Origin: a virus
Taxonomy: Duplodnaviria; Caudoviricetes
DNA length: 64,000 nt
Virus record (IMG/VR): IMGVR_UViG_3300025267_000006
Coordinates: 41,384-105,383 of that record
Direction: 5' to 3' (one strand)
The notes below the pieces were generated by a model. That model was not told where the DNA came from and did no database searches. It saw nothing but the letters and a program-made list of their open reading frames with translations. This document shows positions 15,630 through 43,038 of the stretch, in pieces; position 1 is the stretch's first letter, and each line of letters begins with the position of its first letter. Position numbers and translations under genes: made by a program.

Positions 15630-17237
15630 TTACTTCTTTCCAACAAGTTTAATTAAATCTTCCACCTCGGCGGCAACTGGATAATCTTCAGACAATAAAA
15701 ACATGGATTCATCTATCTCATTCAACACCTTGGATTCGATGCTGGGAGTTGGGTCGCCGCTCTTCTCCAAAAGAACCCCATCTTTACGCTCTGGACGGGG
15801 TACTTCATCTAATTTTTGAATTTCTGTCTCATCTTCTTCCCCAGTCTCATCTGGAAGGGAGGATTTAACTGAACGAATAAAAGTTTCTAATTTCTTAGCA
15901 TCTTCGCTGAGGTCTCCAGCCCCCTTAGAATCAGCTTTCATTAATTCAAAGAATCTATTCAAATCTCCCCTTAACTCCAAAACCAATTTCTTTATTTCAT
16001 CTACATCTGGATCCTGCTTCATTTCATCAAGAAACTTATGATTGGCTATTAGATTGGAAACCCTAGAAATAGTATTTTTATTGAATCCAAGCCTAGCAAG
16101 AGTCTTTTCTGTTAACTTTGATCCAGGATCGGCATGCCCGGGGAAGTTACCATTAACCTTCTCAATTGCACCCTTGCCAACATCGTGGAACAATAAAGCT
16201 AGGTTTAATATCAAATCAGTAGATTTAGCTGCTTTGAGGGAACGTAGAGTGTGGTCCCATACATCTTTACGCCTACCCTTTTGCTTCAGCCCCCTCAACT
16301 TATTCAAATCAGAGCATATATATTGAATAATATCGTAGGTGGATAAAAATCTAAGCCCTATCCAAGGCTTCTCGGTCTTGAGTATCTTTTTTAACTCCCA
16401 CCCAATTCTGTCTGGTTTTAAATTACCCACTAATTCTGATGCATCCGGCATAGCCGCAAGTAAGGAACCGTGGGGCTTAACAGGAAAATCAGATAGGAAC
16501 CTAGCTGCCCTAAGAATTCGAGAGGAATCTTCAGTAAAGGATTCTAAGCTACGATCTGCGGGAGTGCGAAGTACCTTAGCTTTAATGTCATCCAAACCGT
16601 GGTAAGGATCATAAAATTGACCAGTTACAGATTGAGCAATGGCATTGATTGTAAAATCTCTTTGCCTGAGATTGTCCAACAAACCATCTGCAGTAGTAGA
16701 GATCATATCTACTTTTAAATCACCGACGTGGAATTTCAAACGAGCAAATGCATTCGAATGCTCGGAATACTTGATACCCAAATTATCGAAAATCTGTTTT
16801 ACATTGGCAAGGGGAGTAAGAGATATAATGTCTACATCTTTAGATACTTTTTTAAAATACTTATCTCGAATATAGCCACCAACAAAATAAATAGGAAGGT
16901 AGTTACCTAAAGTACGGATCCAGTCAGTAGCTACCTTACGTTGGTTTAATCTTTGTGCTACCTCCGGGTTGACCCAGGCAGTTCGTGCCCTCTCAAAAGT
17001 CCTGCCACCTCGATGCACTAGCTCATATATTTTAGTCTGAACTTTTCCAGACTCTCCTGGGTGCGTTAACCGCTGAGTCTCTGCGGGTGCTCTTTCCTCA
17101 ACCCTAAAAGATTCAGCACGAGGATCCTCACCCGCCTCTACTCGCTCTATAGAACGAACAGGATCAGCCTCTTGCTTAGCAAGCCAATAATCCAGTTTTA
17201 ACAACATCTCCTGCTCAGGGAGAAATTTGTTAGACAT
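15630..17237 (-). CDS. cca: Class II tRNA nucleotidyltransferase with HD domain, lacking the flexible loop (CC-adding-like)
   Basis: VGGYIRD...DVD (motif A), RDFTINA (B), EDSSRILR (D), DHT...LFHDVGK...GH HD domain; ~100-aa N-terminal leader. Confidence 0.88.
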   Translation of the reverse strand: MSNKFLPEQEMLLKLDYWLAKQEADPVRSIERVEAGEDPRAESFRVEERAPAETQRLTHPGESGKVQTKIYELVHRGGRTFERARTAWVNPEVAQRLNQRKVATDWIRTLGNYLPIYFVGGYIRDKYFKKVSKDVDIISLTPLANVKQIFDNLGIKYSEHSNAFARLKFHVGDLKVDMISTTADGLLDNLRQRDFTINAIAQSVTGQFYDPYHGLDDIKAKVLRTPADRSLESFTEDSSRILRAARFLSDFPVKPHGSLLAAMPDASELVGNLKPDRIGWELKKILKTEKPWIGLRFLSTYDIIQYICSDLNKLRGLKQKGRRKDVWDHTLRSLKAAKSTDLILNLALLFHDVGKGAIEKVNGNFPGHADPGSKLTEKTLARLGFNKNTISRVSNLIANHKFLDEMKQDPDVDEIKKLVLELRGDLNRFFELMKADSKGAGDLSEDAKKLETFIRSVKSSLPDETGEEDETEIQKLDEVPRPERKDGVLLEKSGDPTPSIESKVLNEIDESMFLLSEDYPVAAEVEDLIKLVGKK

Positions 17238-24779: not shown

Positions 24780-26615
24780 TTACTCTTCTTCCGCCTCTTC
24801 CTCTTCATCTGACCACTTTTCAGTAGCAGACTCATCAAGAAGACCACCTTCCAAAGGACCCGGAGGTGGTGGAGGGGGAGGACCAAGTGGAGGGGCCGCT
24901 CCTCCAGCTTCCATACCAGGCATGGGCGGTGCTCCAGCCATAGCCGCCATTGGATCTCCACCTGGCGGAGCCGCCGCCTTCTTATATGTAAATCGTATGT
25001 CCTTGCCAGTATCCTTCTGAGGCTCAAATCCAAGTTGCTGCATCTGAGTAGCAATCTCTATGCGCTGCTTCTCCATAGCAAGGTTAATATCTTCAGTCTC
25101 TTCTCTTGGAGGTGCCAATCCTATAGTCCAATCGTCAACACCTAATTGTTTTAACAAGTTAGGCATTATCGTATCGTTGAATATACTCTGATACGACTCA
25201 ATCAAAGCATCATGCATAGAAGTTTGAGCCGATTCTTTTGCTAAACCTCCACCAGCACTCTGAGCATCTCCAGTGAATAGAGGTGTTACCCCCCACAGCA
25301 TAGCTATACGCTCTCGTATTTCCTGACGAACTGGAAGATAGTCCAATTCCTGGAACGTATACGCCAACTTAACAAAGTCAGTCTTACCACGGTTATTCCG
25401 TGCTGAAGCCGCAACCCATGGGAATGTGTTGGGATCGTTCAACATTTGAGTTTTGATTCTCTCTATTTCAACTTCGAGAGAATCTGGATCATCCGTATAC
25501 GTAATTATCAATCCCGGTGGGATACGCCTTTCATACCAATACCTATATAGAGTCCTGTCGGCCCCAACCAGAGACAAAACTTTTTCAAATACTGTTAATA
25601 CTGGGGAATATCCATAAGTTTTAGAGGGGCTGAAGAATGAAGCATGTAATATCTCATCCTTGGTGTAATACCTATACCTGCCTCTCCAATAGTATCTATA
25701 CATAGCTGGCAACAATATGCCATTGCAGAGGAATCCCTCATCGTTAATAGCTACGCATTGACCGGGACTGGTATGTGTTTGCTGCTCACGGTGTATTGGA
25801 CAGATAAAATGAGATCTTTCAGGAAGCCCATCTTTTCTATCTATGTCATATTCAGTCAGAGCAGGATGCAATCGAGTAATCTCAAATATTCTCTGACTCT
25901 CTACCTCCCCAGTCGCCCTATCTAGAATGTATTCCTTGTTAAGAAGTAAGAATCCGTCATCCGCTATCAAGACATCCTGTATAAATTCTATGAACACCGA
26001 CTGCATTGTTTGATGGAAACTATTTGCATCTGTTTTCAGATCATCAAAAATCTTCTGCTGTGCCATATCGGGCACTCTCATTGGAGCCGTAACTCTCTTA
26101 CCGTTCTCATCTCTCTTATATTTTTTATAATTCTTAGTGGTATAACTACCAGTTTTTTCGTCTATAACAACTTGCTCTTGTATTTCATACAAGAAGCACT
26201 TATCACAATTTTCTTGGTCTTCGTCGGTAGATTCATTGCCACATTGAACACATTTACGTGCAAATTTCTGTACCCAGTTACTAAATCCCCGCCTAAACAC
26301 TTCTCTTTGAATACTAAGTACAACAGAACGTATCTCAGTAACCTGGAAAGCAAGAACGAACAGGTCCTGAAGAATAGATCTGCGATAAATAAACTGTTGG
26401 CGTACCCAATCTTGGATTATTGCGTCTAATCCAAGAGGAGACATACGCCCAGAAGACGCTGATCCTTGAGCGGCCTCTGCAGACTTAGTTAGCGCATCTA
26501 GTGTGCCTAACACGCCCTGCATTTTGTTGTAATTCTCGACCCCAGGAACGGGTTCAGAACCGTTTCTGCCGTTCTGGTTAGAGAATATATTTGCCAGATT
26601 GTCTATTATGCCCAT
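24780..26615 (-). CDS. Portal protein
   Basis: Follows the large terminase; YGYSP motif, IPPGLI, RERIAMLWGVTP; Pro/Gly/acidic tail. Confidence 0.85.
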   Translation of the reverse strand: MGIIDNLANIFSNQNGRNGSEPVPGVENYNKMQGVLGTLDALTKSAEAAQGSASSGRMSPLGLDAIIQDWVRQQFIYRRSILQDLFVLAFQVTEIRSVVLSIQREVFRRGFSNWVQKFARKCVQCGNESTDEDQENCDKCFLYEIQEQVVIDEKTGSYTTKNYKKYKRDENGKRVTAPMRVPDMAQQKIFDDLKTDANSFHQTMQSVFIEFIQDVLIADDGFLLLNKEYILDRATGEVESQRIFEITRLHPALTEYDIDRKDGLPERSHFICPIHREQQTHTSPGQCVAINDEGFLCNGILLPAMYRYYWRGRYRYYTKDEILHASFFSPSKTYGYSPVLTVFEKVLSLVGADRTLYRYWYERRIPPGLIITYTDDPDSLEVEIERIKTQMLNDPNTFPWVAASARNNRGKTDFVKLAYTFQELDYLPVRQEIRERIAMLWGVTPLFTGDAQSAGGGLAKESAQTSMHDALIESYQSIFNDTIMPNLLKQLGVDDWTIGLAPPREETEDINLAMEKQRIEIATQMQQLGFEPQKDTGKDIRFTYKKAAAPPGGDPMAAMAGAPPMPGMEAGGAAPPLGPPPPPPPGPLEGGLLDESATEKWSDEEEEAEEE

Positions 26616-30453: not shown

Positions 30454-33400
30454 TTATTTCTTTTTCTTCTTCCTAGCTGCAGTCCGTTTCGGTTTTTTAT
30501 AGGTAACTTCACCACCAGTTGTAAGACTCCACCCCTTCTTCTTCAATTCTTTTAGCTTCTCAGCAATAGCATTAAACTTCTTAGGGGAAATAGAAGTTAT
30601 ATTCTTCTCAAGCTCTTCTGTTTCTAATTCATTGTACTGATCCCACTCATCGAACAGGTCAGGGTCTATATAATTACCCAAACAAGTTCCGGGATCATTA
30701 CCTAAAATATCAGATGGATCCTCAGCCAATTCCATCTTAGCTCTATCCTGCCTACGCTGAATCCATAATCTAGTTATGTTCTGAATATTCGCAGCAGTGA
30801 GGGGAGATTCACCTGCGTCTTTCAAAGTAATGGTATCAGCAATGACTTGTTTAACTATGACTGCTTCTACAGACTCCATAAATTCTTGTGGTTTGAGAGA
30901 CGAGACAGTTCTATCCCCTATACTATAAGTAGTAGGGATATCAGCCTCTCCTATTAACTTAGCAGCCGCCTCATTAGCATGAAGTGTACGGAAATTCCTG
31001 GCAGTTAGCCTTACATTCGGAAGAGCATCAACCGTAACCCCTCTAATATAAGGATTTACATCCCCCAGAGGAGGGGTGCCAGTACCTCCCCATGCTCCAG
31101 CAGAGAATATGTAATCCTCATCTCCCAACTTCTTATCCCCACTCATTTCCGTAAGTTTCTTAGCCAGCACAGGATCTGTAACTGGGGCATGGTTAACTTT
31201 ACCCGATTTACCCACGAAAGAAAGCATCACAGAGCCATCTGATTGTGGAACTATATGCCGTTTCTGTAGAGTCGATATGCCAAAAGTTTTAACAGAGAAT
31301 TGAGATACTGCAGCATCCTTCCCTTCTCCACGTATCTTAGAGGCCAAAAGATCACTCTTTACAATAGAAACATCTGGCTTTACTTTCCTAACAGCAGCCA
31401 AACCTTTAGCCGTAGAAACCTTTCCCCCACCCGTCATCAATTTATCGCCATCTGGAACACTTATATCAGACTTAGAACCTACACTACCGGGACGACGAGC
31501 CGTATGAAAAATCAGAGCAGCTACCATAGCTGATCTCTGTATGGTATTCAGCCCCATAGCCCTATGCTTTGAAAAATCCTCGTTGGAAGTATCTTCTAGT
31601 GTAAATCTCTGGGGGCTGGATATATCTGAAGCTGCTCTCTGAGCAAGTTTATCTATGATCCCAGACTTAATTAATTTATTTACCTTGGCAAACTTGGATC
31701 TACTACTACTAGCAGACCATGACCAACTATACTTAGTAACTGGTTTTCCTTTAGGACTTACAAGAGTTGCCTGTACCTTACCGTTCATATTTGTATTGAT
31801 TAGAACATCAGTATTAGTACCTATATTAACCCAATGCCCATCCCCTGTAGTAACACCAACAAGACTCTTCTCAACCTCACCAGTTTCTTCATTCTCTACT
31901 TCTTTATAGACAGCTACATTAGGTTGAAGGGGAGTATCATTTGGATCATTAGCTCCTAAACCAGATACATAAGCTTGTCTGGTCTGTGCCGTAATCTGTG
32001 CACCAGAGATTTCCTCCAAACCCTTCGCATATTCTTCTATAGGCACCATCTGAAGTCCGCTAGGAAGCTCAGGATCAGGATCGACGGGTTTTCTAGCTCC
32101 CCTAGGAGCACCAGCCCCGGTAACCATTCCAGGCCCTATAGGGGCACCATCGGCAGTAATCTCATATCCAATAACATCATATTTACCGCCATGAGGGCCA
32201 ACATGTTTTCCCCTATCATGCCGATACTTTTGAGTTTCAGGAAGCTTCCAAGTCCAATCCTCAAATCGTGCCCATTCGGATTCTTCCTGTTTAGCCAGAT
32301 ACTCTACAGCAGTGAGAAGAGTCATAAGTTCAGGGAAATCGTCTGACTTCTGAACCTTACTCGACCCTTCTAAGACTTGAGCCAGTTTAGGATTTATAGA
32401 CTTACCGCTCGGACTAGACTTCGCTGATAGATACAGCGTTCTCATCCACTTACGGAACGGAGATTTCCAGTCTTCTCCATTTAATTTCTCAGTACCAGTA
32501 CCAAAACGTACTGCTTTTTGGATATCTTCATGTCCCTTATGAAGTTCTTCCTCCAATGCCTCAGTGAACGCCTCTTCATTCTCAGCCTTCCAATGACCAT
32601 TTGCGACACCAGATTCCTCCGCAGCAGCTTGCCGCTGTCTTGGAGAGAGATCCCTTCTATAGATATTACCCACACCACGAATCATGTCTTTAACTTTATC
32701 TACAGACAAGAACTGTTGAAAAGTATTGGAATCCTCTTGCAATACGGTTAGTGCTGTAAGATCTTCATTACTCATTGATTCTAAAGCTGCAGGAGTTTCT
32801 GAAATCTTAAATGTCTCATAATCAGTAGTCTGACCGTTATAGCATCCAAGACCAGCCTTGTCCCCACCCATATCGCAGTTAGCACAGGTCCAATTATCCA
32901 AAGTGGGCTTAACTTCAAACTTTTCTGCTGTCTTTTTTCTGCCATCATCGATGGGACACATGTTCACACCGAGATGCTTTCTATTGTCGCTAGGCTGAAT
33001 AGCCCGAACCTGTTTTATATCTTCAGCCGTAGCCCCATTGTCCTTCTTCTTTAGATCCCTAACAGGAAGAACTACCTGAATACGATCTTTGTATTTCTCA
33101 GCAAACGAAAGATTCCTATCGAGTTCGGCTTGCCTCTCTTCTGGTGTTCGAACCTTGCCCGTCCTTCTATCTTTTATCGGACCTTTACCAGTGAATACAA
33201 ATGCTATTGGAAGATCATTGCCTTCAGCTATTTCTGGATTATCCTGATCAACACTCAACAACCTGATATTTTCTTTAGCCACCATATTTAAAAATGCTGG
33301 ACGCTTAGAAAATACATGGACTCTGATGCCCGTACCCTTTGGTGTCTCCGCTCTATTTACGTGATAGATTACTTTGGCCCAAGCCTCAGACCCTTCTCCC

Positions 33401-34557
33401 CTATCAAAGAACCTTAAGGCACGATTATTATCAAAAAGAACTTTTCCTTTGCCGTATACAAAATCTTTAGCAACTTGTGCTGCAAATCTCTTAGGGTCAT
33501 TATTCACAGCCCACTCTAGAAACTCCGATTTCATAATAATATTGGGCCATCGCCCCCTAGCGTTATAAGCGTAACAAAAATCCTTACAATCACCAGAAGG
33601 ATTACAATTCAAAGGACTTGCCGCTACGGCCCCCACAGGTTTAGCTGGACTACCCATGGCTTGAGATTTTTCAATATAATCCCATATGGCTTCACCGCCA
33701 TCACTTTTAATAGCTTCACCAAGCTCGTGTCTGGCAACAGAACTTTCACTTTCTCTTTCATCAATGGCAAAAAATGGATGATCCTCACCATTCAATAGGG
33801 CTGCTATTCCCTGCCTACATTCAGCAGATCTCTTAACAGCTAACCCCCAGGGACTCTTCCTCCACTCATCCCTGTCTTCTTCCTCAACTCCCATCTCCTC
33901 TAGCACATCATCTAAAGTTTTTCCTAACGCTTCAGCCTGTTCCTCTAAGCTATCGGCAGACCATACGTCTAATCTATCTTCTATCGCTCCAAGACCTACA
34001 TTCTGTCCATCCACAAATCCTTCATGATCTATCTCGTCTAACCACGAACCAGCTATTTCTTCAACTCTATTTTCAGGAGTGTTTCCTAATAGTCCAAGTC
34101 CTTTAACAAAAGCAGCTACACTTTTGATTTGATCTTCATTCAAATCGGGACGAACTGCACGTAACTTCTCTAGATGAGCGGCCTCAGCAGGATTAGCTTC
34201 AGTAGGAGCTTGAGGTTGAGGTTGAGGCACACCAGCAGGAGCTAAGGGATTTCCCTCTTGATCCACTTCCGTTCCTATTATTGAAAAACGTCCCTCTCTT
34301 GGCCCCTTATGTTGGCCCTCAGGATGGTAGTGACGCTTCTCTGGGGGAACAAACCCCGTAACCCACTCCTCAGAGATTTCACCCTGCTTAAATAAATATT
34401 CAGCAGCGGCAAGAAGAGTCATAAGTTCAGGAAGGTCGTTAGATTTCTTCAACTTCTTATTCTTCTTTTTATATTTATCTGCTTTATTGGAATCTCGAAC
34501 AGATTTAATCCAATTAGCACTTTCATACGATCTATCTACATTTATTCGTATTACCAT
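30454..34557 (-). CDS. Polyprotein: [module]-GP88-like Cys-rich domain-[module]-type IB DNA topoisomerase
   Basis: GP88-like CNPSGDCKDFCYA...LRFFDRGE...HVFSKR...CP...CANC...CY. Topo IB pentad: TARRPG (R), FVGKSG (K), NFRT (R), LGN (N in place of H), NYIDP (Y). Confidence 0.85.
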   Translation of the reverse strand: MVIRINVDRSYESANWIKSVRDSNKADKYKKKNKKLKKSNDLPELMTLLAAAEYLFKQGEISEEWVTGFVPPEKRHYHPEGQHKGPREGRFSIIGTEVDQEGNPLAPAGVPQPQPQAPTEANPAEAAHLEKLRAVRPDLNEDQIKSVAAFVKGLGLLGNTPENRVEEIAGSWLDEIDHEGFVDGQNVGLGAIEDRLDVWSADSLEEQAEALGKTLDDVLEEMGVEEEDRDEWRKSPWGLAVKRSAECRQGIAALLNGEDHPFFAIDERESESSVARHELGEAIKSDGGEAIWDYIEKSQAMGSPAKPVGAVAASPLNCNPSGDCKDFCYAYNARGRWPNIIMKSEFLEWAVNNDPKRFAAQVAKDFVYGKGKVLFDNNRALRFFDRGEGSEAWAKVIYHVNRAETPKGTGIRVHVFSKRPAFLNMVAKENIRLLSVDQDNPEIAEGNDLPIAFVFTGKGPIKDRRTGKVRTPEERQAELDRNLSFAEKYKDRIQVVLPVRDLKKKDNGATAEDIKQVRAIQPSDNRKHLGVNMCPIDDGRKKTAEKFEVKPTLDNWTCANCDMGGDKAGLGCYNGQTTDYETFKISETPAALESMSNEDLTALTVLQEDSNTFQQFLSVDKVKDMIRGVGNIYRRDLSPRQRQAAAEESGVANGHWKAENEEAFTEALEEELHKGHEDIQKAVRFGTGTEKLNGEDWKSPFRKWMRTLYLSAKSSPSGKSINPKLAQVLEGSSKVQKSDDFPELMTLLTAVEYLAKQEESEWARFEDWTWKLPETQKYRHDRGKHVGPHGGKYDVIGYEITADGAPIGPGMVTGAGAPRGARKPVDPDPELPSGLQMVPIEEYAKGLEEISGAQITAQTRQAYVSGLGANDPNDTPLQPNVAVYKEVENEETGEVEKSLVGVTTGDGHWVNIGTNTDVLINTNMNGKVQATLVSPKGKPVTKYSWSWSASSSRSKFAKVNKLIKSGIIDKLAQRAASDISSPQRFTLEDTSNEDFSKHRAMGLNTIQRSAMVAALIFHTARRPGSVGSKSDISVPDGDKLMTGGGKVSTAKGLAAVRKVKPDVSIVKSDLLASKIRGEGKDAAVSQFSVKTFGISTLQKRHIVPQSDGSVMLSFVGKSGKVNHAPVTDPVLAKKLTEMSGDKKLGDEDYIFSAGAWGGTGTPPLGDVNPYIRGVTVDALPNVRLTARNFRTLHANEAAAKLIGEADIPTTYSIGDRTVSSLKPQEFMESVEAVIVKQVIADTITLKDAGESPLTAANIQNITRLWIQRRQDRAKMELAEDPSDILGNDPGTCLGNYIDPDLFDEWDQYNELETEELEKNITSISPKKFNAIAEKLKELKKKGWSLTTGGEVTYKKPKRTAARKKKKK
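32135..32352 (-). repeat. Cargo module copy 5 (before topoisomerase IB)
   Basis: QKSDDFPELMTLLTAVEYLAKQE...PETQKYRHDRGKHVGPHGGKYDVIGYEITADGAPIG; boundaries approximate. Confidence 0.85.
34240..34450 (-). repeat. Cargo module copy 4 (before GP88-like domain)
   Basis: KKSNDLPELMTLLAAAEYLFKQG...VPPEKRHYHPEGQHKGPREGRFSIIGTEVDQEGNPL. Confidence 0.9.
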
Positions 34558-34566
34558 AATAATTCC

Positions 34567-37500
34567 CTACGCTGGTCGAGGTTCCCCAACTGTACCCTTC
34601 ACGGGTTTCTCATCCTCATCGCTACTTGGAGCCGCAGCTAGTAATTCTGCTATACGTTCTGGGGAAGGAGTTCCCACTACGGATTGTTTTAAACTCTCTG
34701 CCAACTGTTTATCTCCTTGCTTCCTTCTCTCCACTAACTGATGCTCTGTAAGTTTGGGTGCTTTAGTAGGAAAGGTAGAACTTTCCTCTGTATCAGCATA
34801 AGGATCAATAGACAATTTATCATCTGATGACAACTCTGCCCAGAGCCTAGGATGAACACTTCCCGACTCAGGTTCCCATCTTCTAGCTAAGCTCATAGCG
34901 GTCAATATTGATTCACGTTTCGAAGGATTCATTCTATGAATACCCTCAGCGTCAAAGTGTCCATATTGATGATCAATCTTATCAACGTCACTCATAGTCT
35001 CCTGATTATATTCCTCTATCATCTGAGCTACAGAATCTCTATAATCCCATACCTGTGTCTTCCTATTAGGAGAATTAATTCCAAGAACCTCATTCTCATT
35101 ACCAAGAAAGGCATAAGATCCAAAATGAGTGAAAATATCATCTTTAGATATCTCAGATTTAAGAACTACAATTTCATCCGCCTTATCGCCAACCCATCTG
35201 TCAAAAGTCGATGATGGCTCAGCCTTCGGATTCATCTCATCTTGATACTTCTCATAAGAGGTAGACTCAAGCAACCAATCATTATCAGAAGCCTTGGCTG
35301 AAAATTTAAAAGCTACATAAGGTTTAATTGTCCAACTCGTAAGGGGATTGGATTGAAGCTCCACTTCCTCACCCAAATAAGATTTTTCTCTCACTTCGTC
35401 TTTTAATCTAGCTCTCCGATATAATTTATCCCTCCCCTTCTCACCCACCGCTGTTATCTCACCATATTTACCCTCACGGGTAAATTTTCTAGATGGATCC
35501 GCTATCTCTCCTACAGTAGTACCCCTGTAAACAGTCAAAGTGTCCGTATCAGGAAAAGCCAAGTCCAGCATCCACCTACTCAAAGCTTTATGAACTCTTA
35601 CATACTCATCAATATCCTCTTGAGTAGGTTTTGCCCCAAGTTCCTCTTCCTCCCACTTAGATTCCAACAGTTGTTCAGCATTATCTTTCGCCAGAGACAG
35701 ACCTCTATCATCTTTGGCTCCCTGAAAAAATTGAACATCCCCATCAAACTGACGACCCACAGATTCCTGAATAGCCCAGGAGAAATAACCGCCAGTAGAA
35801 TCAGCTTCCCAATCATCCTTAGCCAACCTATGAATGGTTGAGAATTTAGTATTTGAATATAACTCATCCACCACACGAACCAATCTTGAGGTTGGGTCTG
35901 AACTCTCTAAATTCTGTAACCCACTTAAAACTTGACCATCAAATGTAGAATTTGGGAATGCTTTCCTGAATCCATCTTTACCCCCCTCTGGCATGGAAAG
36001 ATTCTCAGAAAAATAATTTATTAAATCATTCCCCAGATAACTAGCAGCTTTATATCTCAGGAAAGCTTGCTGAGCTATCGTAGGATTTGAATGCTCCATA
36101 AGAGGTAAAGCTTCTTGGCTGTTATATCCATTAACCCACTTATTCCTACGAGTAAAAGAAGGAAAAAGCCTTTCTTCATATAACTTTTCCAAAAAGAAAT
36201 CCCTTTGTTCCTCCCTTCCCTTATCCCCAAACAGATCTTGTGCAGTTCTAAGTACGGTTCCTATTTCCCCTTCATGCAAAACAGGTTCAGGTTTCGTCCA
36301 TTTACCTCTTCTTGCCGCAGTTGGATCTAATTTTATATCCCTTTCAATCATCTGCTTGTCAACGGTATCCCAATCCACCTCGTACTGGCCCGGAGTATAT
36401 GAAGTTGGGATTTCTATAGGAGTTTGTCTAACCTGAGTCGGTACAGCCTCACCTAAATCATTCCCGTCCTGATCCACTTCAGTCCCGATAATATCAAAAC
36501 GACCTTTCCTTGGTCCTTTATGTCTACCTGTAGGACTATATTTACGTTTCTCTGGTGGGACATACCCTGTTGTCCACCCCTCAGACCCTTCTCCCTGCTT
36601 AGCCAAATACTCTGTGGCAGCGAGAAGTGTCATAAGTTCTGGAAGATCGTTAGATTTCTTAATTTCCTTCTTTATAGATAAGTCTGCATGTATCGCTACT
36701 TCACGAGTTCCAAGAAAATCCCCTGCCGTATCAACACGAACCAAAGCATTATCTGGAACTGATTCCCTCGATACCTCACTTATACCCACTGTATCTGGAG
36801 TTGCATCACGGAAATTAACTAGAGGATCACCCACAAATAAAGGGTTTTGTACTAGAGGAAACCACTGTTTAGTATCCTCCTCGGTCATTTCAACTGCTAT
36901 ATCGAAGTAGTCATCGAGGAAATCCGCAATGTCCGCTCTATTCCTCTGATACAAAGTTACGAAATGCCTAGTCTCTCTTCCTGCAGGAGGATCACTTTCG
37001 ATATCTATTAGAGGCTCCAATGCTTGCTCATACAAAGCGGTATGAATGTCGTCAGAATCAATCTCTTCATCTATTTCCGCTAAACCCTTATCTGCCGCCG
37101 CTTGTAATCTACTATGAATGTATTGAGCATCCTCATCAACATACTTATTCAATAACTCTTTTATCTTCACCCAATCACTATCTGTATAGTCCGTAAGCTC
37201 AGTAGGCACACCTAAACGTGCTATCTCACCCGCACGGAGCATTTCTTTTTGCATAAATTTGGCATGTTCTGGGTCAGTAGTAAAATAGGCTGCATTGTTT
37301 AGTTCTTTTGTTTGTGGGCCACCTAGCCCATGTACCTGCTCCTCATCCCCCCTTAATGCCAAAATCGTCCCAGATGATTGTATTTTTTGGTGATGGGGAG
37401 AAACATGATACAAAACATCGGGTAATTCAGCCTTAGCGATCTTCCTACCGTTCCCAGGGGATAAAGAATAGTCATTTGTTACGTGAACTTTAGGTTCAAC

Positions 37501-39873
37501 AGAAGGAGCTTCTTCAGCCTGTTGAGGCTTAGGCTCAAAACTCTCCCCCTCAAACACCCAATCTTTACCGTACTCTAGCTGAGTACGTTTTGTGACTAAT
37601 ACGTTTGCCTCTCCAGCCTCTCCAACTTCGGGAGGTATGTTATATTGCTGATCAGGTAAATACGCATCTCCCTCCTCAGTACGTATTTTTATGGTCTGTG
37701 CGTCAGCAGCATCTAATCCATAATCATCTTGTAACTGCTGTCTCCAAAAATCTGGATCACCTACATGTATGCCTCTAAGCCCGGATGGCCCATCTGCATA
37801 TCCCACACTGTCTAAATCATATACTTCTAAAGTATCTCCAGCCTTTGACCCCCATATAACACGAGCAACTTCCTCTCCCTCATCAGCCATACTCCAATCA
37901 TACTCAATATTATCTTCAATCCACTCTCGTTCTTCTGCTTCTGAAGAAATAACAGCATCTTCCGGCTGTGGAAGGATGTTACCCTGCTGAGGGGGCATCG
38001 GAAGTTCGCTTATATCATGAGGGCCAGGAGGTTGTGCCTGTGAAAGTTGACCTAAGGAATCACCATGTTCATTTACTTCTGTACCTATGATAGAAAATCT
38101 GCCGCCTCTAGGACCCGTATGGGTGCCTTCCATATGGTAGAAACGTTTTTCAGGTGGAACAAATCCTGAAGTCCACTCTTGGGACGGAGTTATTCCCTGT
38201 TTAGATAAATGCTCTGTAGCAAATTGATACTTATTTCTAACGTAATCCAAAGCTTCATCAGCAGAAGCTATCTCTCCCTCTTCCTGCTGCCCTTGAACAT
38301 CACGAAGGATGTCTCCAAGCTCACGCCCTTCTTTAAAGCCAAGACCCTTCAGATCATTGCCTGTTAGAAGGGGAGCTATCTTCCCCTCTTTTAATCCACC
38401 AGCCTCAGAAACCTGCTTAATTCGATCCCGGAACCAAACATTCTCCTCATTTCCATGCTCAGTCATCGAACCATCAGGATTTTTAACTAATCTTCCACTT
38501 GCATCGGCCTCAGACACAGCAGAAAGAAGATTTAGGTACTCAGTCCCATGCTTATTGATTAATCGCCTGAAAGCGGCATCTGAAGCCCCGTCTCGATGAT
38601 ATTGAAGAGGCTTGAGGTGATTCTCAACTAGAGAGGGAACTGTGGCTAAGATGTCCCTGTCATTAGTTAACTTGCCCAGGAATTCCTCTGTTATGGGAAC
38701 ACCCGCTGCCTCATGACCGATAGCCCTACCATCTGAGGTAGTGGTCTCAGGCTTACCCAGGTCATGACATAACGCAGCCAGCATGATAATGGTTTTATCT
38801 TTTTCATCTGGAAAACGTTGGATAATCTCTGCTGCTTTATCCAGAGTCATCTTAGTGTGAATAAATACATCACCTTCAGCGTGGTAATCACTACGTTGGT
38901 GAGTATCCTTCAGTGCAGAGATTTCTGAGAACTGGGTATCCAGCACTCCCATATCATCCAGTGCCTGTATACCTGTAGATGGGGTAGGGGACTTCAATAA
39001 TAACTTTTCGAATTCCCCAAAAACCCGCTCATTAGATATCTCAGACAAATCCATCGAACGAGCCAGTTCCTGGGTAGATGGATCTATAGAAAAATCAAAC
39101 CGAGAAGCAAACTGTGCAGCCCTGTAAACACGGAGTGGATCCTCAACAAAGGTTTCCGGGCTTACATGTTTGATACGTTTCGCTTCTAAATCCTGTATGC
39201 CCCCAAAAAAATCCAACACTTTGTCATTTTTATAATCGTACATCAACGCATTGATCGTAAAATCTCTACGTCTAGCCGCTAATTCTGGAGATAAATTAGG
39301 GTTAGGCTCCACATCAAAATCGGTATGCTTATCTCCAACCTTAGTCTCAGTCCTAGGTAGGGAGATATCAAAATCCCCAACTTTGAATACACCGTAGATC
39401 TTGCCTACCTGATTCTGCTTGCCCCCCAAATCCTTTTGGACAATGTCTGATAGCTCATCGATGGTCAAACCATAAACTTCAATATCTACGTCTTTACTTG
39501 GTACTCCGAGTAATGCATCTCTAACGCCCCCACCGACCACATAGGGATCGCCGTACTGAGATAGGGTGTTTAGAACATGCTGAGCTTCGGAATCCCTCTC
39601 TATCCAGGCCCGTACACTTTCATTCTCCATGCCCGGAGCCAGAGTGGGAACGGGCTGACCAAGTGGATTTCCATGAGGATCTGTCTCTACCCCAATAATA
39701 GAAAAACGACCACCCCTGGGTCCTGTATGTTTCCCTTCAGGGTGGTAGTAGCGTTTTTCTGGGGGGACGTGAGAAGTTATCCCCTGCTTATATAGATACT
39801 CTGTAGAGGCAAGAAGGGTCAGAATCTCAGATAGTCTATATTTTTCTTGAGTCATAGCCCATATGTATTGCAA
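34567..39873 (-). CDS. Polyprotein: [module]-CCA-adding enzyme/HD-[module]-ART-like (H-Y-E)-[module]-ART (R-S-ExE)
   Basis: CCA: VGGGVRD..DVD, RRDFTINA, EDPLR, HAEGDVFIHT..CHDLGK. Second domain: LYHVS...AYFTTD...REV. Third domain: VYRG...TSWT...ENEVL. The start may be M7. Confidence 0.85.
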   Translation of the reverse strand: MQYIWAMTQEKYRLSEILTLLASTEYLYKQGITSHVPPEKRYYHPEGKHTGPRGGRFSIIGVETDPHGNPLGQPVPTLAPGMENESVRAWIERDSEAQHVLNTLSQYGDPYVVGGGVRDALLGVPSKDVDIEVYGLTIDELSDIVQKDLGGKQNQVGKIYGVFKVGDFDISLPRTETKVGDKHTDFDVEPNPNLSPELAARRRDFTINALMYDYKNDKVLDFFGGIQDLEAKRIKHVSPETFVEDPLRVYRAAQFASRFDFSIDPSTQELARSMDLSEISNERVFGEFEKLLLKSPTPSTGIQALDDMGVLDTQFSEISALKDTHQRSDYHAEGDVFIHTKMTLDKAAEIIQRFPDEKDKTIIMLAALCHDLGKPETTTSDGRAIGHEAAGVPITEEFLGKLTNDRDILATVPSLVENHLKPLQYHRDGASDAAFRRLINKHGTEYLNLLSAVSEADASGRLVKNPDGSMTEHGNEENVWFRDRIKQVSEAGGLKEGKIAPLLTGNDLKGLGFKEGRELGDILRDVQGQQEEGEIASADEALDYVRNKYQFATEHLSKQGITPSQEWTSGFVPPEKRFYHMEGTHTGPRGGRFSIIGTEVNEHGDSLGQLSQAQPPGPHDISELPMPPQQGNILPQPEDAVISSEAEEREWIEDNIEYDWSMADEGEEVARVIWGSKAGDTLEVYDLDSVGYADGPSGLRGIHVGDPDFWRQQLQDDYGLDAADAQTIKIRTEEGDAYLPDQQYNIPPEVGEAGEANVLVTKRTQLEYGKDWVFEGESFEPKPQQAEEAPSVEPKVHVTNDYSLSPGNGRKIAKAELPDVLYHVSPHHQKIQSSGTILALRGDEEQVHGLGGPQTKELNNAAYFTTDPEHAKFMQKEMLRAGEIARLGVPTELTDYTDSDWVKIKELLNKYVDEDAQYIHSRLQAAADKGLAEIDEEIDSDDIHTALYEQALEPLIDIESDPPAGRETRHFVTLYQRNRADIADFLDDYFDIAVEMTEEDTKQWFPLVQNPLFVGDPLVNFRDATPDTVGISEVSRESVPDNALVRVDTAGDFLGTREVAIHADLSIKKEIKKSNDLPELMTLLAATEYLAKQGEGSEGWTTGYVPPEKRKYSPTGRHKGPRKGRFDIIGTEVDQDGNDLGEAVPTQVRQTPIEIPTSYTPGQYEVDWDTVDKQMIERDIKLDPTAARRGKWTKPEPVLHEGEIGTVLRTAQDLFGDKGREEQRDFFLEKLYEERLFPSFTRRNKWVNGYNSQEALPLMEHSNPTIAQQAFLRYKAASYLGNDLINYFSENLSMPEGGKDGFRKAFPNSTFDGQVLSGLQNLESSDPTSRLVRVVDELYSNTKFSTIHRLAKDDWEADSTGGYFSWAIQESVGRQFDGDVQFFQGAKDDRGLSLAKDNAEQLLESKWEEEELGAKPTQEDIDEYVRVHKALSRWMLDLAFPDTDTLTVYRGTTVGEIADPSRKFTREGKYGEITAVGEKGRDKLYRRARLKDEVREKSYLGEEVELQSNPLTSWTIKPYVAFKFSAKASDNDWLLESTSYEKYQDEMNPKAEPSSTFDRWVGDKADEIVVLKSEISKDDIFTHFGSYAFLGNENEVLGINSPNRKTQVWDYRDSVAQMIEEYNQETMSDVDKIDHQYGHFDAEGIHRMNPSKRESILTAMSLARRWEPESGSVHPRLWAELSSDDKLSIDPYADTEESSTFPTKAPKLTEHQLVERRKQGDKQLAESLKQSVVGTPSPERIAELLAAAPSSDEDEKPVKGTVGEPRPA
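36450..36660 (-). repeat. Cargo module copy 3 (before R-S-E ART)
   Basis: KKSNDLPELMTLLAATEYLAKQG...VPPEKRKYSPTGRHKGPRKGRFDIIGTEVDQDGNDLG. Confidence 0.9.
38050..38220 (-). repeat. Cargo module copy 2 (before H-Y-E ART-like domain)
   Basis: ATEHLSKQG...VPPEKRFYHMEGTHTGPRGGRFSIIGTEVNEHGDSLG. Confidence 0.9.
39657..39835 (-). repeat. Cargo module copy 1 (before CCA-adding domain)
   Basis: LSEILTLLASTEYLYKQG...VPPEKRYYHPEGKHTGPRGGRFSIIGVETDPHGNPLG. Confidence 0.9.
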
Positions 39874-40085
39874 GCAGCCTCAAGTTTTTGGGGACTGTAG
39901 CCAACAATAAACTCATTTCCTATGCGAACTACTGGTGTTGACCTGTACCCCAAATCTCGCAGACGTGCACCAGCATCCATATCCACAGAAATGTTAAATT
40001 CAGTAAAAGAGATTCCCTTGCCCGAAAGCCACGCTTTCGTCATGTGGCAGGGACCTCAACCCATACTTGTATATATCTCTACCAT
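39852..40085 (-). CDS. Glutaredoxin/NrdH-like selenoprotein (UGPC active site, 77 aa)
   Basis: ATG at 40085 overlaps the upstream TGA. The frame reads MVEIYTSMG-TGA-GPCHMTKAWLSGKGISF...RSTPVV...IVGY; the TGA (40056-40058) sits at the first Cys of CxxC. Confidence 0.85.
40014..40053 (-). promoter_or_regulatory. Bacterial SECIS-like hairpin
   Basis: TCCCTGCC-(ACATGA)-CGAAAGC-GTG-GCTTTCG-GGCA(A)GGGA; the apical loop starts with G and lies 23 nt after the UGA. Confidence 0.7.
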
Positions 40086-40498
40086 CAACTCTTCTTCTTT
40101 CTAGTAGTTGATTTACGATTCAATTTTGAACTGGCTTTTTTAGCATTAGCTCTCTTCTTCTTTGGTGGAGCAGCAGGTGGAGGAGTTGGAGTATAATTCT
40201 CTGCTGCTTCCCTATCGGCCTCAGCAGCCGTCTCCAGTGCTATGTTTATTTCATCAGCAGAAGCAACAGATTGGGGCGTAAACTCTACAGTACTGGGCGT
40301 AGATGATGTGGAAGTAGGAACATCAGTATCTGTAGAAATCGTAACAACACCCGCCGAGGTAGCAGTGGTGGTAGCTACAGTAACATCTGAAACCAGATCA
40401 TCTCCATCAGACGAACAGACGCATACCCCATCCACACAACACTCACTTACCGGGGGATCTTTCTGAAAAAGTTTAGTTATAGAACTGAGTAATCCCAT
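40085..40498 (-). CDS. Low-complexity hypothetical protein
   Basis: Thr/Ser-rich middle, basic tail, CCxxxxCxC motif. Confidence 0.55.
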   Translation of the reverse strand: MGLLSSITKLFQKDPPVSECCVDGVCVCSSDGDDLVSDVTVATTTATSAGVVTISTDTDVPTSTSSTPSTVEFTPQSVASADEINIALETAAEADREAAENYTPTPPPAAPPKKKRANAKKASSKLNRKSTTRKKKS

Positions 40499-40523: not shown

Positions 40524-40751
40524 TTAGATCTGCCCTGTTTTTGGATTCCTAAAAAAAGTTTTCCAAGACGTGTACTCTTTTGGCACATCCCACGGTATAG
40601 CTCCTAATTCATCTTTAGACTTATTCCAACCATCTAACCTTTTAGCAATGCAATATCCCGCTGCCGCAACCATAACTACTACTATAGCACTACTAACGGC
40701 AACTGAAGCTTTTTTATTTCTTAACATATCAATTACAAGCAGAATATCCAC
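40524..40751 (-). CDS. Small membrane protein
   Basis: Single hydrophobic helix; start uncertain. Confidence 0.5.
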   Translation of the reverse strand: MDILLVIDMLRNKKASVAVSSAIVVVMVAAAGYCIAKRLDGWNKSKDELGAIPWDVPKEYTSWKTFFRNPKTGQI

Positions 40752-43038
40752 ATGAATAGCATTTCATGCAACCTTCTTCCTGCACCATAGAATCGCTATC
40801 GCAATCTGGACACTCCACCCTATCCTCCGACATAAAAATAGGCTCTACACTCTCTTGGAAACTATGTTGAACATCAGTGCTGCTTTGAACCTTATCAGAC
40901 ACCTGATCAAGTACCCAAGCAATTGCGTCAGGCGTGGATCGTATCAATCTGCCTTTATGATATACAGGTTTATCTGAATTAATTCCTCTCAACTGCTTAG
41001 CTAAATCAGGGGCAGGTACACCATGCTGTAACGCCGTAGAGATTACTCTACCCAAAGCCTCTATCTGTGCATTTGTGCTGGCCCCACTCTTCCCTACATT
41101 AGCGAATAACTCCACAAGTCTATTCTCATGGAAACTTAAATTGACGTACATATTTCCATGCCCTGTAGGTACTTTCCAAGTCTGACCATCCAAAACCTCA
41201 GGTCTATCAAAATTAACCGATACTTGAATAGGCAAAAGCCCATCTGTATCCGACGCACCTATATTAAGCTCTGTAGATACAAGTACCTCTTTCTGTCTAG
41301 ATCCATTTCGGTAGACAGTGATGCCCTTACACCCAGAAGACCAAGCTAATCTATACGCCTTGTCTACGTCCTCCTCAGAGGACTCAAAAGGCATATTTAT
41401 AGTCTTGGAGATCCCACTATCAACATGATGCTGCCAAATTGACTGCATTTTTACATGCCATTCAGGAGTAATATCATTAGAAGTGCGAAAATGATTTTTT
41501 CTATCATTTGGAACAAAATCAATCAATGCCTTACCCGATCCAAGATATTTATCTACATCCAACCCGTCAGGTACATAATCTAATAAATATTTATTTATAT
41601 AATATAACTCTGTATTTTCAAGCTGAGAAGACATATTGTGCTTCTTATAGGAAAGAGAAAAATGAGGCTCTATACCTGATGAAGCATCAGCAATCATACT
41701 TATGGTTCCAGTAGGGGCAATGGAAAGCCTCCAGGCATTTCTCATATAATCCCATTTGCCCCCATTCTTCTTATTCAGTGTAGATTCATCAAAAGCGGGG
41801 AAATTGCCCTTTAATTTACCCAAACGAGAACTTTCCTTGTCAGCAGTATCTTTAAGATTGCTAGCAATCAAATTTCCGAGTTCAAGAGCCTCTTCTGAAT
41901 CATATGGAATTCCCAACTTAGTAAGTAAATCAGCCCACCCCATAACTCCCAGACCTATCTTTCGAGTAAGCTTGTTCATCTCACGAGTCTTATCGGTGGG
42001 ATGATTATTAGCATCAACCACATTATCTAGTAGACGAACACTGAGCTTTACAGTTTCATCGAATCTACTACTATCAAAACCATAAGAACCTCCCTCATTT
42101 TCTAAATAGAAATTTCCTAAATTAATACTCCCTAAGTTGCAAGATTCCCCAGATAAAAGAGGCTGCTCCCCACAAGGATTAGTGGCATTTATTCTGCCAA
42201 TCTGTGGAGTAGTATTGTCTTCGTTAATCCTATCTAACCAGACCATGCCCGGTTCTCCATTTTTCCAGGCACCAGAAACAATCTTGTTGAATAAATCACG
42301 AGCCTTCATAGATTTTCCCGGTTGTTTACGATCAGCATCAAGCTGATCCTCATAATATCTATTCTTATCTAGAGGCCAGGTAAAGTTTATATATTGATCA
42401 TTCTTCACTGCTTCCATGAAATTCGAATCAGCCCCAACGGATATGTTGAAATTATCTATACGGCCTTCAACATTCTTACAAGTTATAAACTCTTCTATAT
42501 CTGGATGGTAAACACTCATGATAGCCATATGGGCACCAGCACGTTTACCGCCCTGGGTGATAAGATTGCCTACTTCAGAAAGAACACGAAGAACGGCTAT
42601 GGGTCCACAAGCAGCCCCCTGGGTGGTAGTAATTGGTCTACCTTTAGGCCGAATGCCGCTCAAAGCAAACCCAACTCCACCACCAAACTTTTCAATAAAA
42701 GCCTGATCCTTGATAGTAGTAGTGATGCCCTCCATGGAATCATCTATGTCCAAAACATAGCAAGCACTCAAAGTACCTTGGCCTGTACCAGCGTTCATCA
42801 ACGTAGGGGAGTTCGGCACAAAATCCAAACTCCACATTAATTCGAAGAATGACTTCTCTAATTCACGTATCTCCTTGCCTGATACACGATAATTACTCTC
42901 TACCTCAGATAGACATTTTGATACACGTGAAAACATTTTCTCTGGAGACTCCGTCTCCTCACCGTCTTTAAGAAGATATCTTTTCTCCAATACCGAAACC
43001 GCATTCTCCGTAAAATTGCCAGTAGTACCAACAGTCAT
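40729..43038 (-). CDS. nrdJ: Class II (B12-dependent) ribonucleotide reductase with C-terminal TSCPD/zinc-ribbon region
   Basis: PNSPTLMNAG, LSAC, TNPCGEQPL, IAPTGTIS, SKTINMP, CKGITVYR; C-terminal CPDC...C..CGYSAC; no beta-subunit gene nearby. Confidence 0.93.
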   Translation of the reverse strand: MTVGTTGNFTENAVSVLEKRYLLKDGEETESPEKMFSRVSKCLSEVESNYRVSGKEIRELEKSFFELMWSLDFVPNSPTLMNAGTGQGTLSACYVLDIDDSMEGITTTIKDQAFIEKFGGGVGFALSGIRPKGRPITTTQGAACGPIAVLRVLSEVGNLITQGGKRAGAHMAIMSVYHPDIEEFITCKNVEGRIDNFNISVGADSNFMEAVKNDQYINFTWPLDKNRYYEDQLDADRKQPGKSMKARDLFNKIVSGAWKNGEPGMVWLDRINEDNTTPQIGRINATNPCGEQPLLSGESCNLGSINLGNFYLENEGGSYGFDSSRFDETVKLSVRLLDNVVDANNHPTDKTREMNKLTRKIGLGVMGWADLLTKLGIPYDSEEALELGNLIASNLKDTADKESSRLGKLKGNFPAFDESTLNKKNGGKWDYMRNAWRLSIAPTGTISMIADASSGIEPHFSLSYKKHNMSSQLENTELYYINKYLLDYVPDGLDVDKYLGSGKALIDFVPNDRKNHFRTSNDITPEWHVKMQSIWQHHVDSGISKTINMPFESSEEDVDKAYRLAWSSGCKGITVYRNGSRQKEVLVSTELNIGASDTDGLLPIQVSVNFDRPEVLDGQTWKVPTGHGNMYVNLSFHENRLVELFANVGKSGASTNAQIEALGRVISTALQHGVPAPDLAKQLRGINSDKPVYHKGRLIRSTPDAIAWVLDQVSDKVQSSTDVQHSFQESVEPIFMSEDRVECPDCDSDSMVQEEGCMKCYSCGYSACN

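Follow-up and report, generated by a model that had tools for sequence, protein, structure and literature searches.

A tailed-phage redoxin gene with a conserved in-frame UGA codon and an adjacent hairpin: a probable selenoprotein decoded with host machinery

Why does a phage redoxin gene carry a stop codon exactly where the first catalytic cysteine is expected? The question is raised by a locus in a stretch of 64,000 nucleotides (the window; all positions count from its first letter unless stated otherwise), which forms the last 64 kb of the linear, 105,383-base IMG/VR virus record IMGVR_UViG_3300025267_000006, a record estimated by CheckV to be approximately 69% complete. The open reading frame (ORF) called with translation table 11 at 39852..40043 on the minus strand encodes 63 amino acids of a glutaredoxin (Grx) without its CxxC, and begins at Met15, just past the position of that motif. 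When the frame was extended upstream, the sequence read as the original prediction had proposed. A gene of 77 codons plus a TGA stop (39852..40085, minus strand; MVEIYTSMG-U-GPCHM...NTYGL) starts at the ATG at 40085, whose A is common to the TGA that ends the upstream ORF at 40085..40498 (TGATG). Its first nine codons, ATG GTA GAG ATA TAT ACA AGT ATG GGT, are followed by an in-frame TGA at codon 10 (40056..40058, minus strand) and then by GGT CCC TGC CAC ATG ACG AAA GCG TGG CTT TCG GGC AAG GGA. With the TGA taken as a residue the product is MVEIYTSMG-U-GPCHMTKAWLSGKG..., also written MVEIYTSMG-U-GPCHMTKAWLSGKGISFTEFNISVD...NTYGL, in which codon 10 is the proposed selenocysteine (Sec) at the first position of U-G-P-C and codon 13, TGC (40047..40049, minus strand), is the resolving Cys of a U-x-x-C motif. 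The comparisons presented here make it highly probable that this gene contains a genuine, selected Sec codon with a selenocysteine insertion sequence (SECIS), and this marine phage is very likely to produce a selenoprotein by means of the machinery of its host.

When the UGA was read as Cys, residues 2-60 of the product matched positions 1-60 of the 60-position Pfam Glutaredoxin profile PF00462 with 54.3 bits (E 1.5e-14; gathering cut-off, 22.9), so that the domain was covered in full and the CxxC region with it. The match starts at profile position 1, and therefore the nine codons before the TGA are part of the domain. The best-scoring NCBIfam model was that of the YruB family (TIGR02196, 71.2 bits compared to a curated cut-off of 88.55, which was not reached). 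Neither NrdH TIGR02194 (60.0 compared to 85.75) nor NF007657 (38.2 compared to 131) reached its cut-off, and the same held for the UXX-star selenoprotein models NF041212 (38.2 compared to 66), NF041211 (32.3 compared to 100) and NF047338 (19.4 compared to 97). The closest solved structures in sequence alignments were the glutaredoxin 7c10 and the NrdH-redoxins 4hs1, 4f2i, 1r7h and 1h75; U10 aligned with the first Cys of CPHC or CVQC in the NrdH and Grx structures, and the segment VGYSP with the NrdH segment GFRP. By this sequence evidence the redoxin is NrdH-like, and yet it is not a member of the NrdH model.

DNA of relatives was obtained from one viral contig (1 relative among 16 pattern matches) and from 25 metagenome contigs (25 among 313 matches). 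Codon 10 was TGA in 20 of the 21 loci with 48-94% identity to the window's redoxin (L002-L022), the remaining one (L006) having TGT, and more distant loci (L023-L027, 33-42% identity) had Cys in this column within the motifs CGYC, CVYC, CAPC and CGFC. The closer loci fell into two groups. Group A, the phage type, comprises the window and L002-L009, with the residues TKAWLSGKG, a G+C content of 41-45% and the phage gene order. Group B, the SAR202 type (L010-L022), has the residues VKVYLSRKG, a G+C content of 34-65%, and neighbours such as rpoC, EamA, FecCD-type transporter and CorC-type genes, because of which its setting is taken to be cellular. A search of GTDB genomes with the group B alignment gave 106 relatives, 80 of which were retained (L028-L107); every retained record title named Chloroflexota, Dehalococcoidia or SAR202, and codon 10 was TGA in 80 of 80. 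Group A peptide patterns found no relative in GTDB genomes, and a first single-protein scan of viral contigs found none either. Degenerate DNA patterns of the TGA-plus-hairpin core, run over viral contigs, returned a single, already known contig for the phage type and nothing for the SAR202 type. In an alignment of 28 sequences the GPC residues that follow the UGA were invariant, and codon 13 varied synonymously between TGC and TGT.

Independent contigs and protein records gave the same picture. Contigs from four further runs had no other letter at 40056-40058 and differed synonymously at 40044, 40047 and 40053. A 4.7-kb contig of a hydrothermal-vent metagenome (run X14, record 8) shared with the window only the 40-nt core of UGA plus hairpin (40022-40061, 1 difference); its flanks had diverged in DNA and still encoded ...VYTSHG-U-GPCHM.... 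Thirteen clusters of the protein database were relatives of the read-through product. Only P0002 was full-length, a Cys form of 77 amino acids with 86% identity, and the other 12 were 62-63 residues long and all had Met15 or Val15 as their first residue; among them was the window's own product, found on 34 contigs, and the other 11 likewise start at position 15. The natural Cys variant (TGT; L006:1428-1658, P0002) is 86% identical, lies in the same gene order and still has an intact upper hairpin, which suggests a recent switch from Sec to Cys within the phage lineage. The column of codon 10 thus contains Cys in homologs both near (L006/P0002) and distant (L023-L027), and the coding sequence is conserved on either side of the UGA. 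A separate 62-residue truncated homolog, P0014, combines phage-type TKAWLS over the hairpin with a SAR202-like remainder (61% identity) and may represent a lineage intermediate between the two types.

The codons upstream of the UGA had evolved as coding sequence. Among the 8 distinct group A sequences (L007 was dropped as a duplicate of L002), Val2, Glu3, Tyr5, Thr6, Ser7 and Gly9 were conserved in 8/8 despite varying codons, and Ser7 was encoded by four different codons (AGT, TCT, AGC and TCA). Among the 88 distinct sequences of the 89 in group B (L011, L015, L020 and L021 were dropped as duplicates), Ser7 was present in all 88 and Val4 in 86, each with four codons. The Val, Glu, Thr and Gly codons before the UGA varied only synonymously. 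A mere leader in front of a real stop would not evolve in this way, and the nine upstream codons are therefore read as translated in frame.

The original prediction had also placed a SECIS-like hairpin directly after the UGA. Its upper stem-loop (40023..40039, minus strand) begins 16 nt after the UGA and consists of the 7-bp stem CGAAAGC/GCUUUCG and the apical loop GUG (40030-40032), located 23 nt from the UGA, and together with the lower stem GGUCCCUGCC/GGCAAGGGAAUC the predicted hairpin covers 40009..40057 (minus strand). The fold predictions returned the 7-bp stem, the loop and the lower stem as proposed, whereas the register of the lower stem was not conserved in the relatives and conservation was limited to the upper stem-loop. 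The predicted energy was -23.2 kcal/mol for a 68-nt fold (z -2.33; 7 of 200 shuffles equally good), -22.0 kcal/mol for the 50-nt element (z -3.0; 1 of 200 shuffles) and -8.3 kcal/mol for the upper hairpin alone (z -2.59; 4 of 200 shuffles). These single-sequence statistics are only modest, and the weight comes from the comparative data.

In group B the stem codons were nearly fixed, with GTG for Val16 and Val18 and CTT for Leu20 in 88 of 88 sequences each and TCA for Ser21 in 87, although Leu and Ser are six-fold degenerate. Lys17 was AAA in 80 sequences and AAG in 8, the latter retaining a G-U pair, and the loop codon of Tyr19 was free (TAT in 55, TAC in 33), as were the flanking four- and six-fold degenerate codons, which had 1.3-2.3 bits of synonymous entropy. 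In the group A set, codons 16-21 showed no synonymous variation, and every degenerate codon at 11-14 and 22-24 varied. The stem itself differs between the groups, CGAAAGC/GCUUUCG in A compared to GUGAAAG/CUUUCAC in B. In a covariation set of 17 sequences, from which five near-duplicates had been removed, the upper stem had five invariant pairs and one fully compensatory pair, 20-36 (U-A in 9 sequences, C-G in 8). Of the cells, 88% were paired compared to 18-57% when the partners were slid, and none of 500 shuffles matched the observed pairing or covariation score. Judged by these comparisons, the hairpin is under selection at the RNA level.

The bacterial SECIS (bSECIS) model, as set out in the available part of PMC13188914, calls for a loop of 3-9 nt whose first or second base is G, in most cases with G or U as the following base, an upper stem 4-16 bp long, a distance of 16-37 nt from UGA to loop and a minimum free energy of -7.5 kcal/mol or lower. 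The phage stem-loop lies within these bounds (GUG loop of 3 nt, 7 bp, spacing of 23 nt and -8.3 kcal/mol for the upper part), as does the SAR202-type hairpin (UGUAY loop of 5 nt, 7 bp, 22 nt and -7.6 kcal/mol). A scan of 39700-40300 against Rfam at E up to 10 gave nothing on the hairpin and four chance matches to animal microRNAs or long noncoding RNAs.

Decoding of this UGA as Sec would require machinery that the phage itself appears to borrow, as had been proposed, and the record is consistent with this view: selA, selB, selD and tRNA-Sec were not found in the whole 105-kb record, itself about 69% complete. Its sole tRNA is a long-arm tRNA-Tyr (gta) at 25886-25973 of the record (G000:C1), outside the window; it reached 25.8 bits with the tRNA-Sec model, which is less than the cut-off, and does not count as a tRNA-Sec. 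This phage uses TGA as a normal stop, at the end of 23 of the 75 ORFs of at least 150 codons and of the redoxin gene itself, and a genome-wide reassignment of TGA was rejected on this count. A TGA-plus-hairpin descriptor, which does not use homology, gave 11 matches over the 105-kb record, and only the redoxin stood in a credible coding and redox context; another match, at position 24648 of the genome, fell in a stretch between ORFs. A loose list of TGA read-through candidates for the same record consisted mainly of non-coding frames.

The only cellular carriers found, of the Chloroflexota SAR202/Dehalococcoidia type, do have genes of this machinery. A selB gene above the curated cut-off was present in five genomes that carry the UGPC redoxin and in five more SAR202-type genomes, that is, in 10 of the 10 tested. 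The five carrier genomes all had a tRNA-Sec (63.6-71.2 bits), called tRNA-SeC with anticodon tca by ARAGORN. A selD gene was present in 5 of 5 genomes, in each case with one in-frame TGA followed by a hairpin with a G-U loop approximately 33 nt downstream. Because selB, tRNA-Sec and selD are present in the genomes tested, the SAR202-type lineage is taken to be a Sec user, and the SECIS loops of this lineage share G-U with the phage hairpin. SelD is itself of the selenoprotein type in L193-L197 (genomes G001-G004 and G011), with ...LASCAG-U-ASKFSP... and the candidate SECIS loops GUG, GUU and AGUUC.

What, then, might a phage do with such a redoxin? On the minus strand, the redoxin gene is preceded by that of NrdJ (40729..43038), a class II (B12-dependent) ribonucleotide reductase (RNR) of 769 amino acids with a Cys-rich C-terminal tail (PF02867, 414.8 bits; PF00317; TSCPD). 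Two small ORFs without a family match lie between them on the same strand, one for a membrane-like product of 75 amino acids (40524..40751) that overlaps the end of NrdJ and one, ORF137, for 137 amino acids with a Lys-rich tail (40085..40498). Downstream, the TGA stop of the redoxin gene overlaps the probable ATG of a giant ORF (34567..39855, minus strand; ATGA) of about 1760 amino acids, whose N-terminus combines a CCA-adding/poly(A)-polymerase head with RNA-binding and HD domains. The order NrdJ, 75-residue ORF, ORF137, redoxin and giant ORF was kept in seven of eight group A loci, the eighth contig being too short, and the identity of NrdJ across this module was 53-86%. On a 15-kb viral contig (L198), 14 of 17 ORFs stood in the same order as in the window, the primase at one end and the giant ORFs at the other, and NrdJ lay upstream of the redoxin. 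NrdH, Grx and thioredoxin are established RNR reductants, NrdH being recycled by thioredoxin reductase. Given this role and the conserved gene order, we lean, by a little over an even chance, towards the redoxin as the reductant of the phage NrdJ.

The original prediction had called for a Sec-using host. The cellular carriers are of this kind; the host of the phage itself is one that we infer. It is reasonably likely to be a SAR202-type Chloroflexota. In GTDB the cellular family of the redoxin was found solely in Chloroflexota records, and the nine best matches of the phage NrdJ (46-54% identity) were all Chloroflexota, SAR202 or Dehalococcoid, other phyla coming next with 40-43%. Two results speak against a SAR202 host. 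In an even sample of Dehalococcoidia, only 25 of 401 genomes matched at E <=1e-15, 8 with the in-frame TGA and 17 without it, which points to a UGPC family limited to a subclade. A search of 401 Dehalococcoidia genomes with the large terminase gave two distant matches, the best with 30% identity, and at this identity there is no close prophage among them. A scan of GTDB with RecA found no close relative. The best NrdJ match (L113, 54%) lies on a 36.8-kb contig of the Chloroflexota metagenome-assembled genome (MAG) G006, which holds two copies of selB above the cut-off; this bin may be mixed, or the L113 contig may be viral.

Several observations weigh against the account of a selenoprotein that serves NrdJ in a SAR202-type host. 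Approximately 31% of the phage genome is outside the record by the CheckV estimate. The phage hairpin differs from the SAR202 type in its loop (GUG closed by C-G compared to UGUAY), in one exchanged pair and in a stem displaced by one position, and recognition of the phage type by SelB is for this reason an assumption. The stem covariation amounts to a single evolutionary event between the two groups. The sequence GAGG, 10 nt upstream of Met15, could permit internal initiation of the 63-residue product without the CxxC. At least one lineage can do without Sec, as the syntenic Cys variant L006/P0002 shows. The cellular homologs do not lie beside RNR, so that phage synteny is the sole ground for the RNR link. 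A quick protein tree (87 rows by 72 columns) was poorly resolved and gave no direction of transfer, the phage group being compatible with one clade (support 31). Lastly, the redoxin was not found in the four SAR202 MAGs, of unknown completeness, that have the closest NrdJ, when P0001 and alignment A3 were used as queries and a positive control was found; these four MAGs do have selB.

How else could the TGA be explained? Neither an assembly or sequencing error nor a nonsense mutation confined to one strain deserves any appreciable probability, and both were rejected: the same TGA was present in 20 independent contigs and 80 GTDB genomes, contigs of the four runs had no alternative letter, the identical truncated protein occurred on 34 contigs, and the hairpin was conserved along with the TGA. 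The UGA might instead be a real stop, separating a nine-residue leader from a 63-residue, CxxC-less protein that starts at Met15 as a degenerate or regulatory glutaredoxin remnant. Gene callers do predict this form in 12 clusters, with the GAGG suitably placed before Met15; it is nevertheless very unlikely, because the nine upstream codons are under in-frame purifying selection and correspond to the first strand of the Grx profile, no variation is seen in the GPC that follows the UGA, Met15 is conserved in distant Cys homologs (CGYCKM, CVYCRM) where a start is impossible, and a broken gene would not retain an identical stop over more than 100 lineages. We also regard as improbable a read-through of the UGA without selenium, in which Cys, Trp or Gly would be inserted through near-cognate decoding or by a suppressor tRNA from the unseen third of the genome and the hairpin would only slow termination. 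The incomplete record, with tRNA-Tyr as the only tRNA seen, leaves room for such a tRNA. The UGA stands, however, exactly at the column of the catalytic Cys, and the same UGA and hairpin recur in 80 of 80 cellular homologs, a lineage with selB (10/10), tRNA-Sec (5/5) and selD (5/5). Moreover, the hairpin fits the bSECIS model down to the G-U of its loop, and TGA is a normal stop in this phage.

A further alternative leaves the selenoprotein in place and disputes only its partner. The redoxin could be a host-derived general thiol-disulfide or antioxidant protein, or the reductant of another phage enzyme, for example the giant nucleotidyltransferase/HD protein. The neighbours of the cellular homologs (rpoC, transporters or CorC-type genes, not RNR) favour such a role, as do the two unrelated small ORFs between redoxin and NrdJ and the overlap of the redoxin stop with the start of the giant gene. 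In contrast, the order from NrdJ to redoxin persists across the phage lineage while NrdJ has diverged to 53% identity, and NrdH-like redoxins, which belong to a known class of RNR reductants, are frequent phage genes, with matches in 642 GenBank phage records, all below 60% identity. We consider this alternative a secondary one that still merits a fair hearing, and the reading as a selenoprotein, highly probable as stated, is common to it and to the RNR proposal.

Among known systems, Sec-containing Grx (PF00462, UxxC) is a verified bacterial selenoprotein family (PMC13188914, citing Kim et al. 2011 for Clostridium oremlandii, in the part of the article available), and Sec-Grx is listed for Geobacter, Alkaliphilus and Moorella in the accessible text of PMC1794560. 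The phage redoxin resembles these proteins in its Pfam fold, in Sec as the first residue of UxxC, in a SECIS within the coding sequence after the UGA and in its predicted decoding by SelB and tRNA-Sec. In contrast to these chromosomal genes of anaerobes, it is phage-borne, has a thioredoxin-like U-G-P-C and scores nearer to NrdH and YruB than to classical glutathione-dependent Grx. With the SAR202/Dehalococcoidia UGPC redoxin (L010-L022, L028-L107) it shares 48-61% identity, the motif G-U-G-P-C-H-M, the position of the UGA and of the hairpin, the stem core GAAAG/CUUUC and the loop G-U. The SAR202 redoxin differs in being cellular and not linked to RNR, in its stem GUGAAAG/CUUUCAC and 5-nt loop UGUAY, and in the residues VKVYLSR compared to TKAWLSG in the phage. 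Among genomes with a G+C content of 40-67% its SECIS hardly changes (GGUGAAAGUGUAYCUUUCAC). The family scores below the cut-off of every NCBIfam model, and it is apparently an uncurated selenoprotein family.

The NrdH-redoxins (E. coli 1H75, C. ammoniagenes 1R7H, M. tuberculosis 4HS1/4F2I) and YruB have in common with the phage product a length of about 75-80 amino acids and the Grx fold, and gave the best NCBIfam and PDB matches; NrdH-redoxins differ in having Cys (CVQC) rather than Sec and a classical class Ib partner, NrdEF, rather than the class II NrdJ. The phage gene also resembles the NrdH-like glutaredoxins and thioredoxins of other phages, for example those of Arthrobacter and Enterococcus, in being a small redoxin carried beside genes of nucleotide metabolism. 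The GenBank phage redoxins listed had approximately 40-45% identity and, where annotated, are ordinary proteins by that annotation, their active-site codons not having been inspected.

The viral selenoproteins named in the available text of PMC8310308 are only the glutathione peroxidases (GPx) of the poxviruses molluscum contagiosum and fowlpox. Like the phage redoxin, poxvirus GPx is encoded by a virus and depends wholly on host Sec machinery, and the fowlpox SECIS lies inside the coding region; it differs in belonging to eukaryotic viruses, with eukaryotic SECIS and SBP2, and in its GPx fold (PMC8310308). The words 'phage', 'virus', 'viral' and 'Chloroflex' do not occur in the available text of a 2026 review of the prokaryotic selenoproteome (PMC13188914), and in a marine survey the families examined, except RNR II and two cuproproteins, had no or very few viral sequences. 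The earlier remark that phage selenoproteins are rarely described agrees with the searchable full-text literature, in which no natural phage-encoded selenoprotein was found and from which most subscription journals and supplements are absent. What is new is the phage as carrier; the Sec-Grx family and the standard bacterial mechanism are already known.

The remaining genes agree with a tailed phage. The window encodes a portal (PHROGs, E 4e-41), a large terminase (3e-14), a DNA polymerase and a helicase, as well as RecA, a primase, a DnaB-type helicase, a RuvC-like nuclease and the class II RNR. A module of about 65 amino acids (LLA.TEYL.KQG ... PPEKR.Y ... G.H.GPR.GRF.IIG.E) occurs three times in the giant ORF, near residues 14-80, 552-617 and 1072-1146. 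A second ORF resembling a tRNA nucleotidyltransferase is located at 15630-17237 (minus strand; PHROG 2244, E 3e-48), and with the giant ORF alongside it this phage genome would have two enzymes of the CCA-adding type. An ORF of 1367 amino acids (30454-34557, minus strand) gave a weak, sub-threshold match to the catalytic core of eukaryotic topoisomerase I (22.2 bits compared to a cut-off of 23.7).

We infer selenium insertion, recognition by SelB, the partnership with NrdJ, a donor that would re-reduce the redoxin, and the host from the comparisons above, and propose the following sequence of events. During infection a ribosome would arrive at UGA10, and host SelB with GTP and Sec-tRNA(Sec) would bind the hairpin 16 nt downstream, with its 7-bp stem and G-U loop, and insert Sec. 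The machinery would be supplied by the host, probably a Sec-using SAR202-type Chloroflexota, the phage record being without selA, selB, selD and tRNA-Sec. The product would be a 77-residue NrdH/YruB-like selenocysteine redoxin with the active site U10-G-P-C13, whose most probable task would be to re-reduce the phage NrdJ, encoded upstream, for the supply of deoxyribonucleotides to replication.

A bolder proposal is that this is the first bacteriophage lineage known to encode a genuine selenoprotein whose own SECIS is matched to the SAR202 SelB, and that UGA10, beyond improving catalysis, acts as a checkpoint for host and selenium. We regard this as doubtful. If it were true, completion of the redoxin would require a cell that is Sec-competent and replete in selenium, ribosomes would reach the coupled giant gene under no other condition (joints TGATG upstream and ATGA downstream), and the switching between Sec and Cys seen in the TGT variant would track host range or the selenium supply of the deep ocean.

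If the selenoprotein is confirmed, phages can carry genes that depend on recoding and need a matching host SelB, and the DNA synthesis of this phage would be tied to the selenium economy of its host. Viral selenoproteins would then be systematically missed, because standard gene calling truncates such genes, as the 12 truncated clusters, all starting at position 15, illustrate. The gene would also serve as a sequence marker connecting SAR202, an abundant deep-ocean clade for which to our knowledge no cultured phages exist, with an uncultured phage lineage whose genome measures about 105 kb or more. It would represent a form of reliance on the recoding machinery of the host that has not been reported for phages, and would offer a handle on the phages of this uncultured deep-ocean clade.

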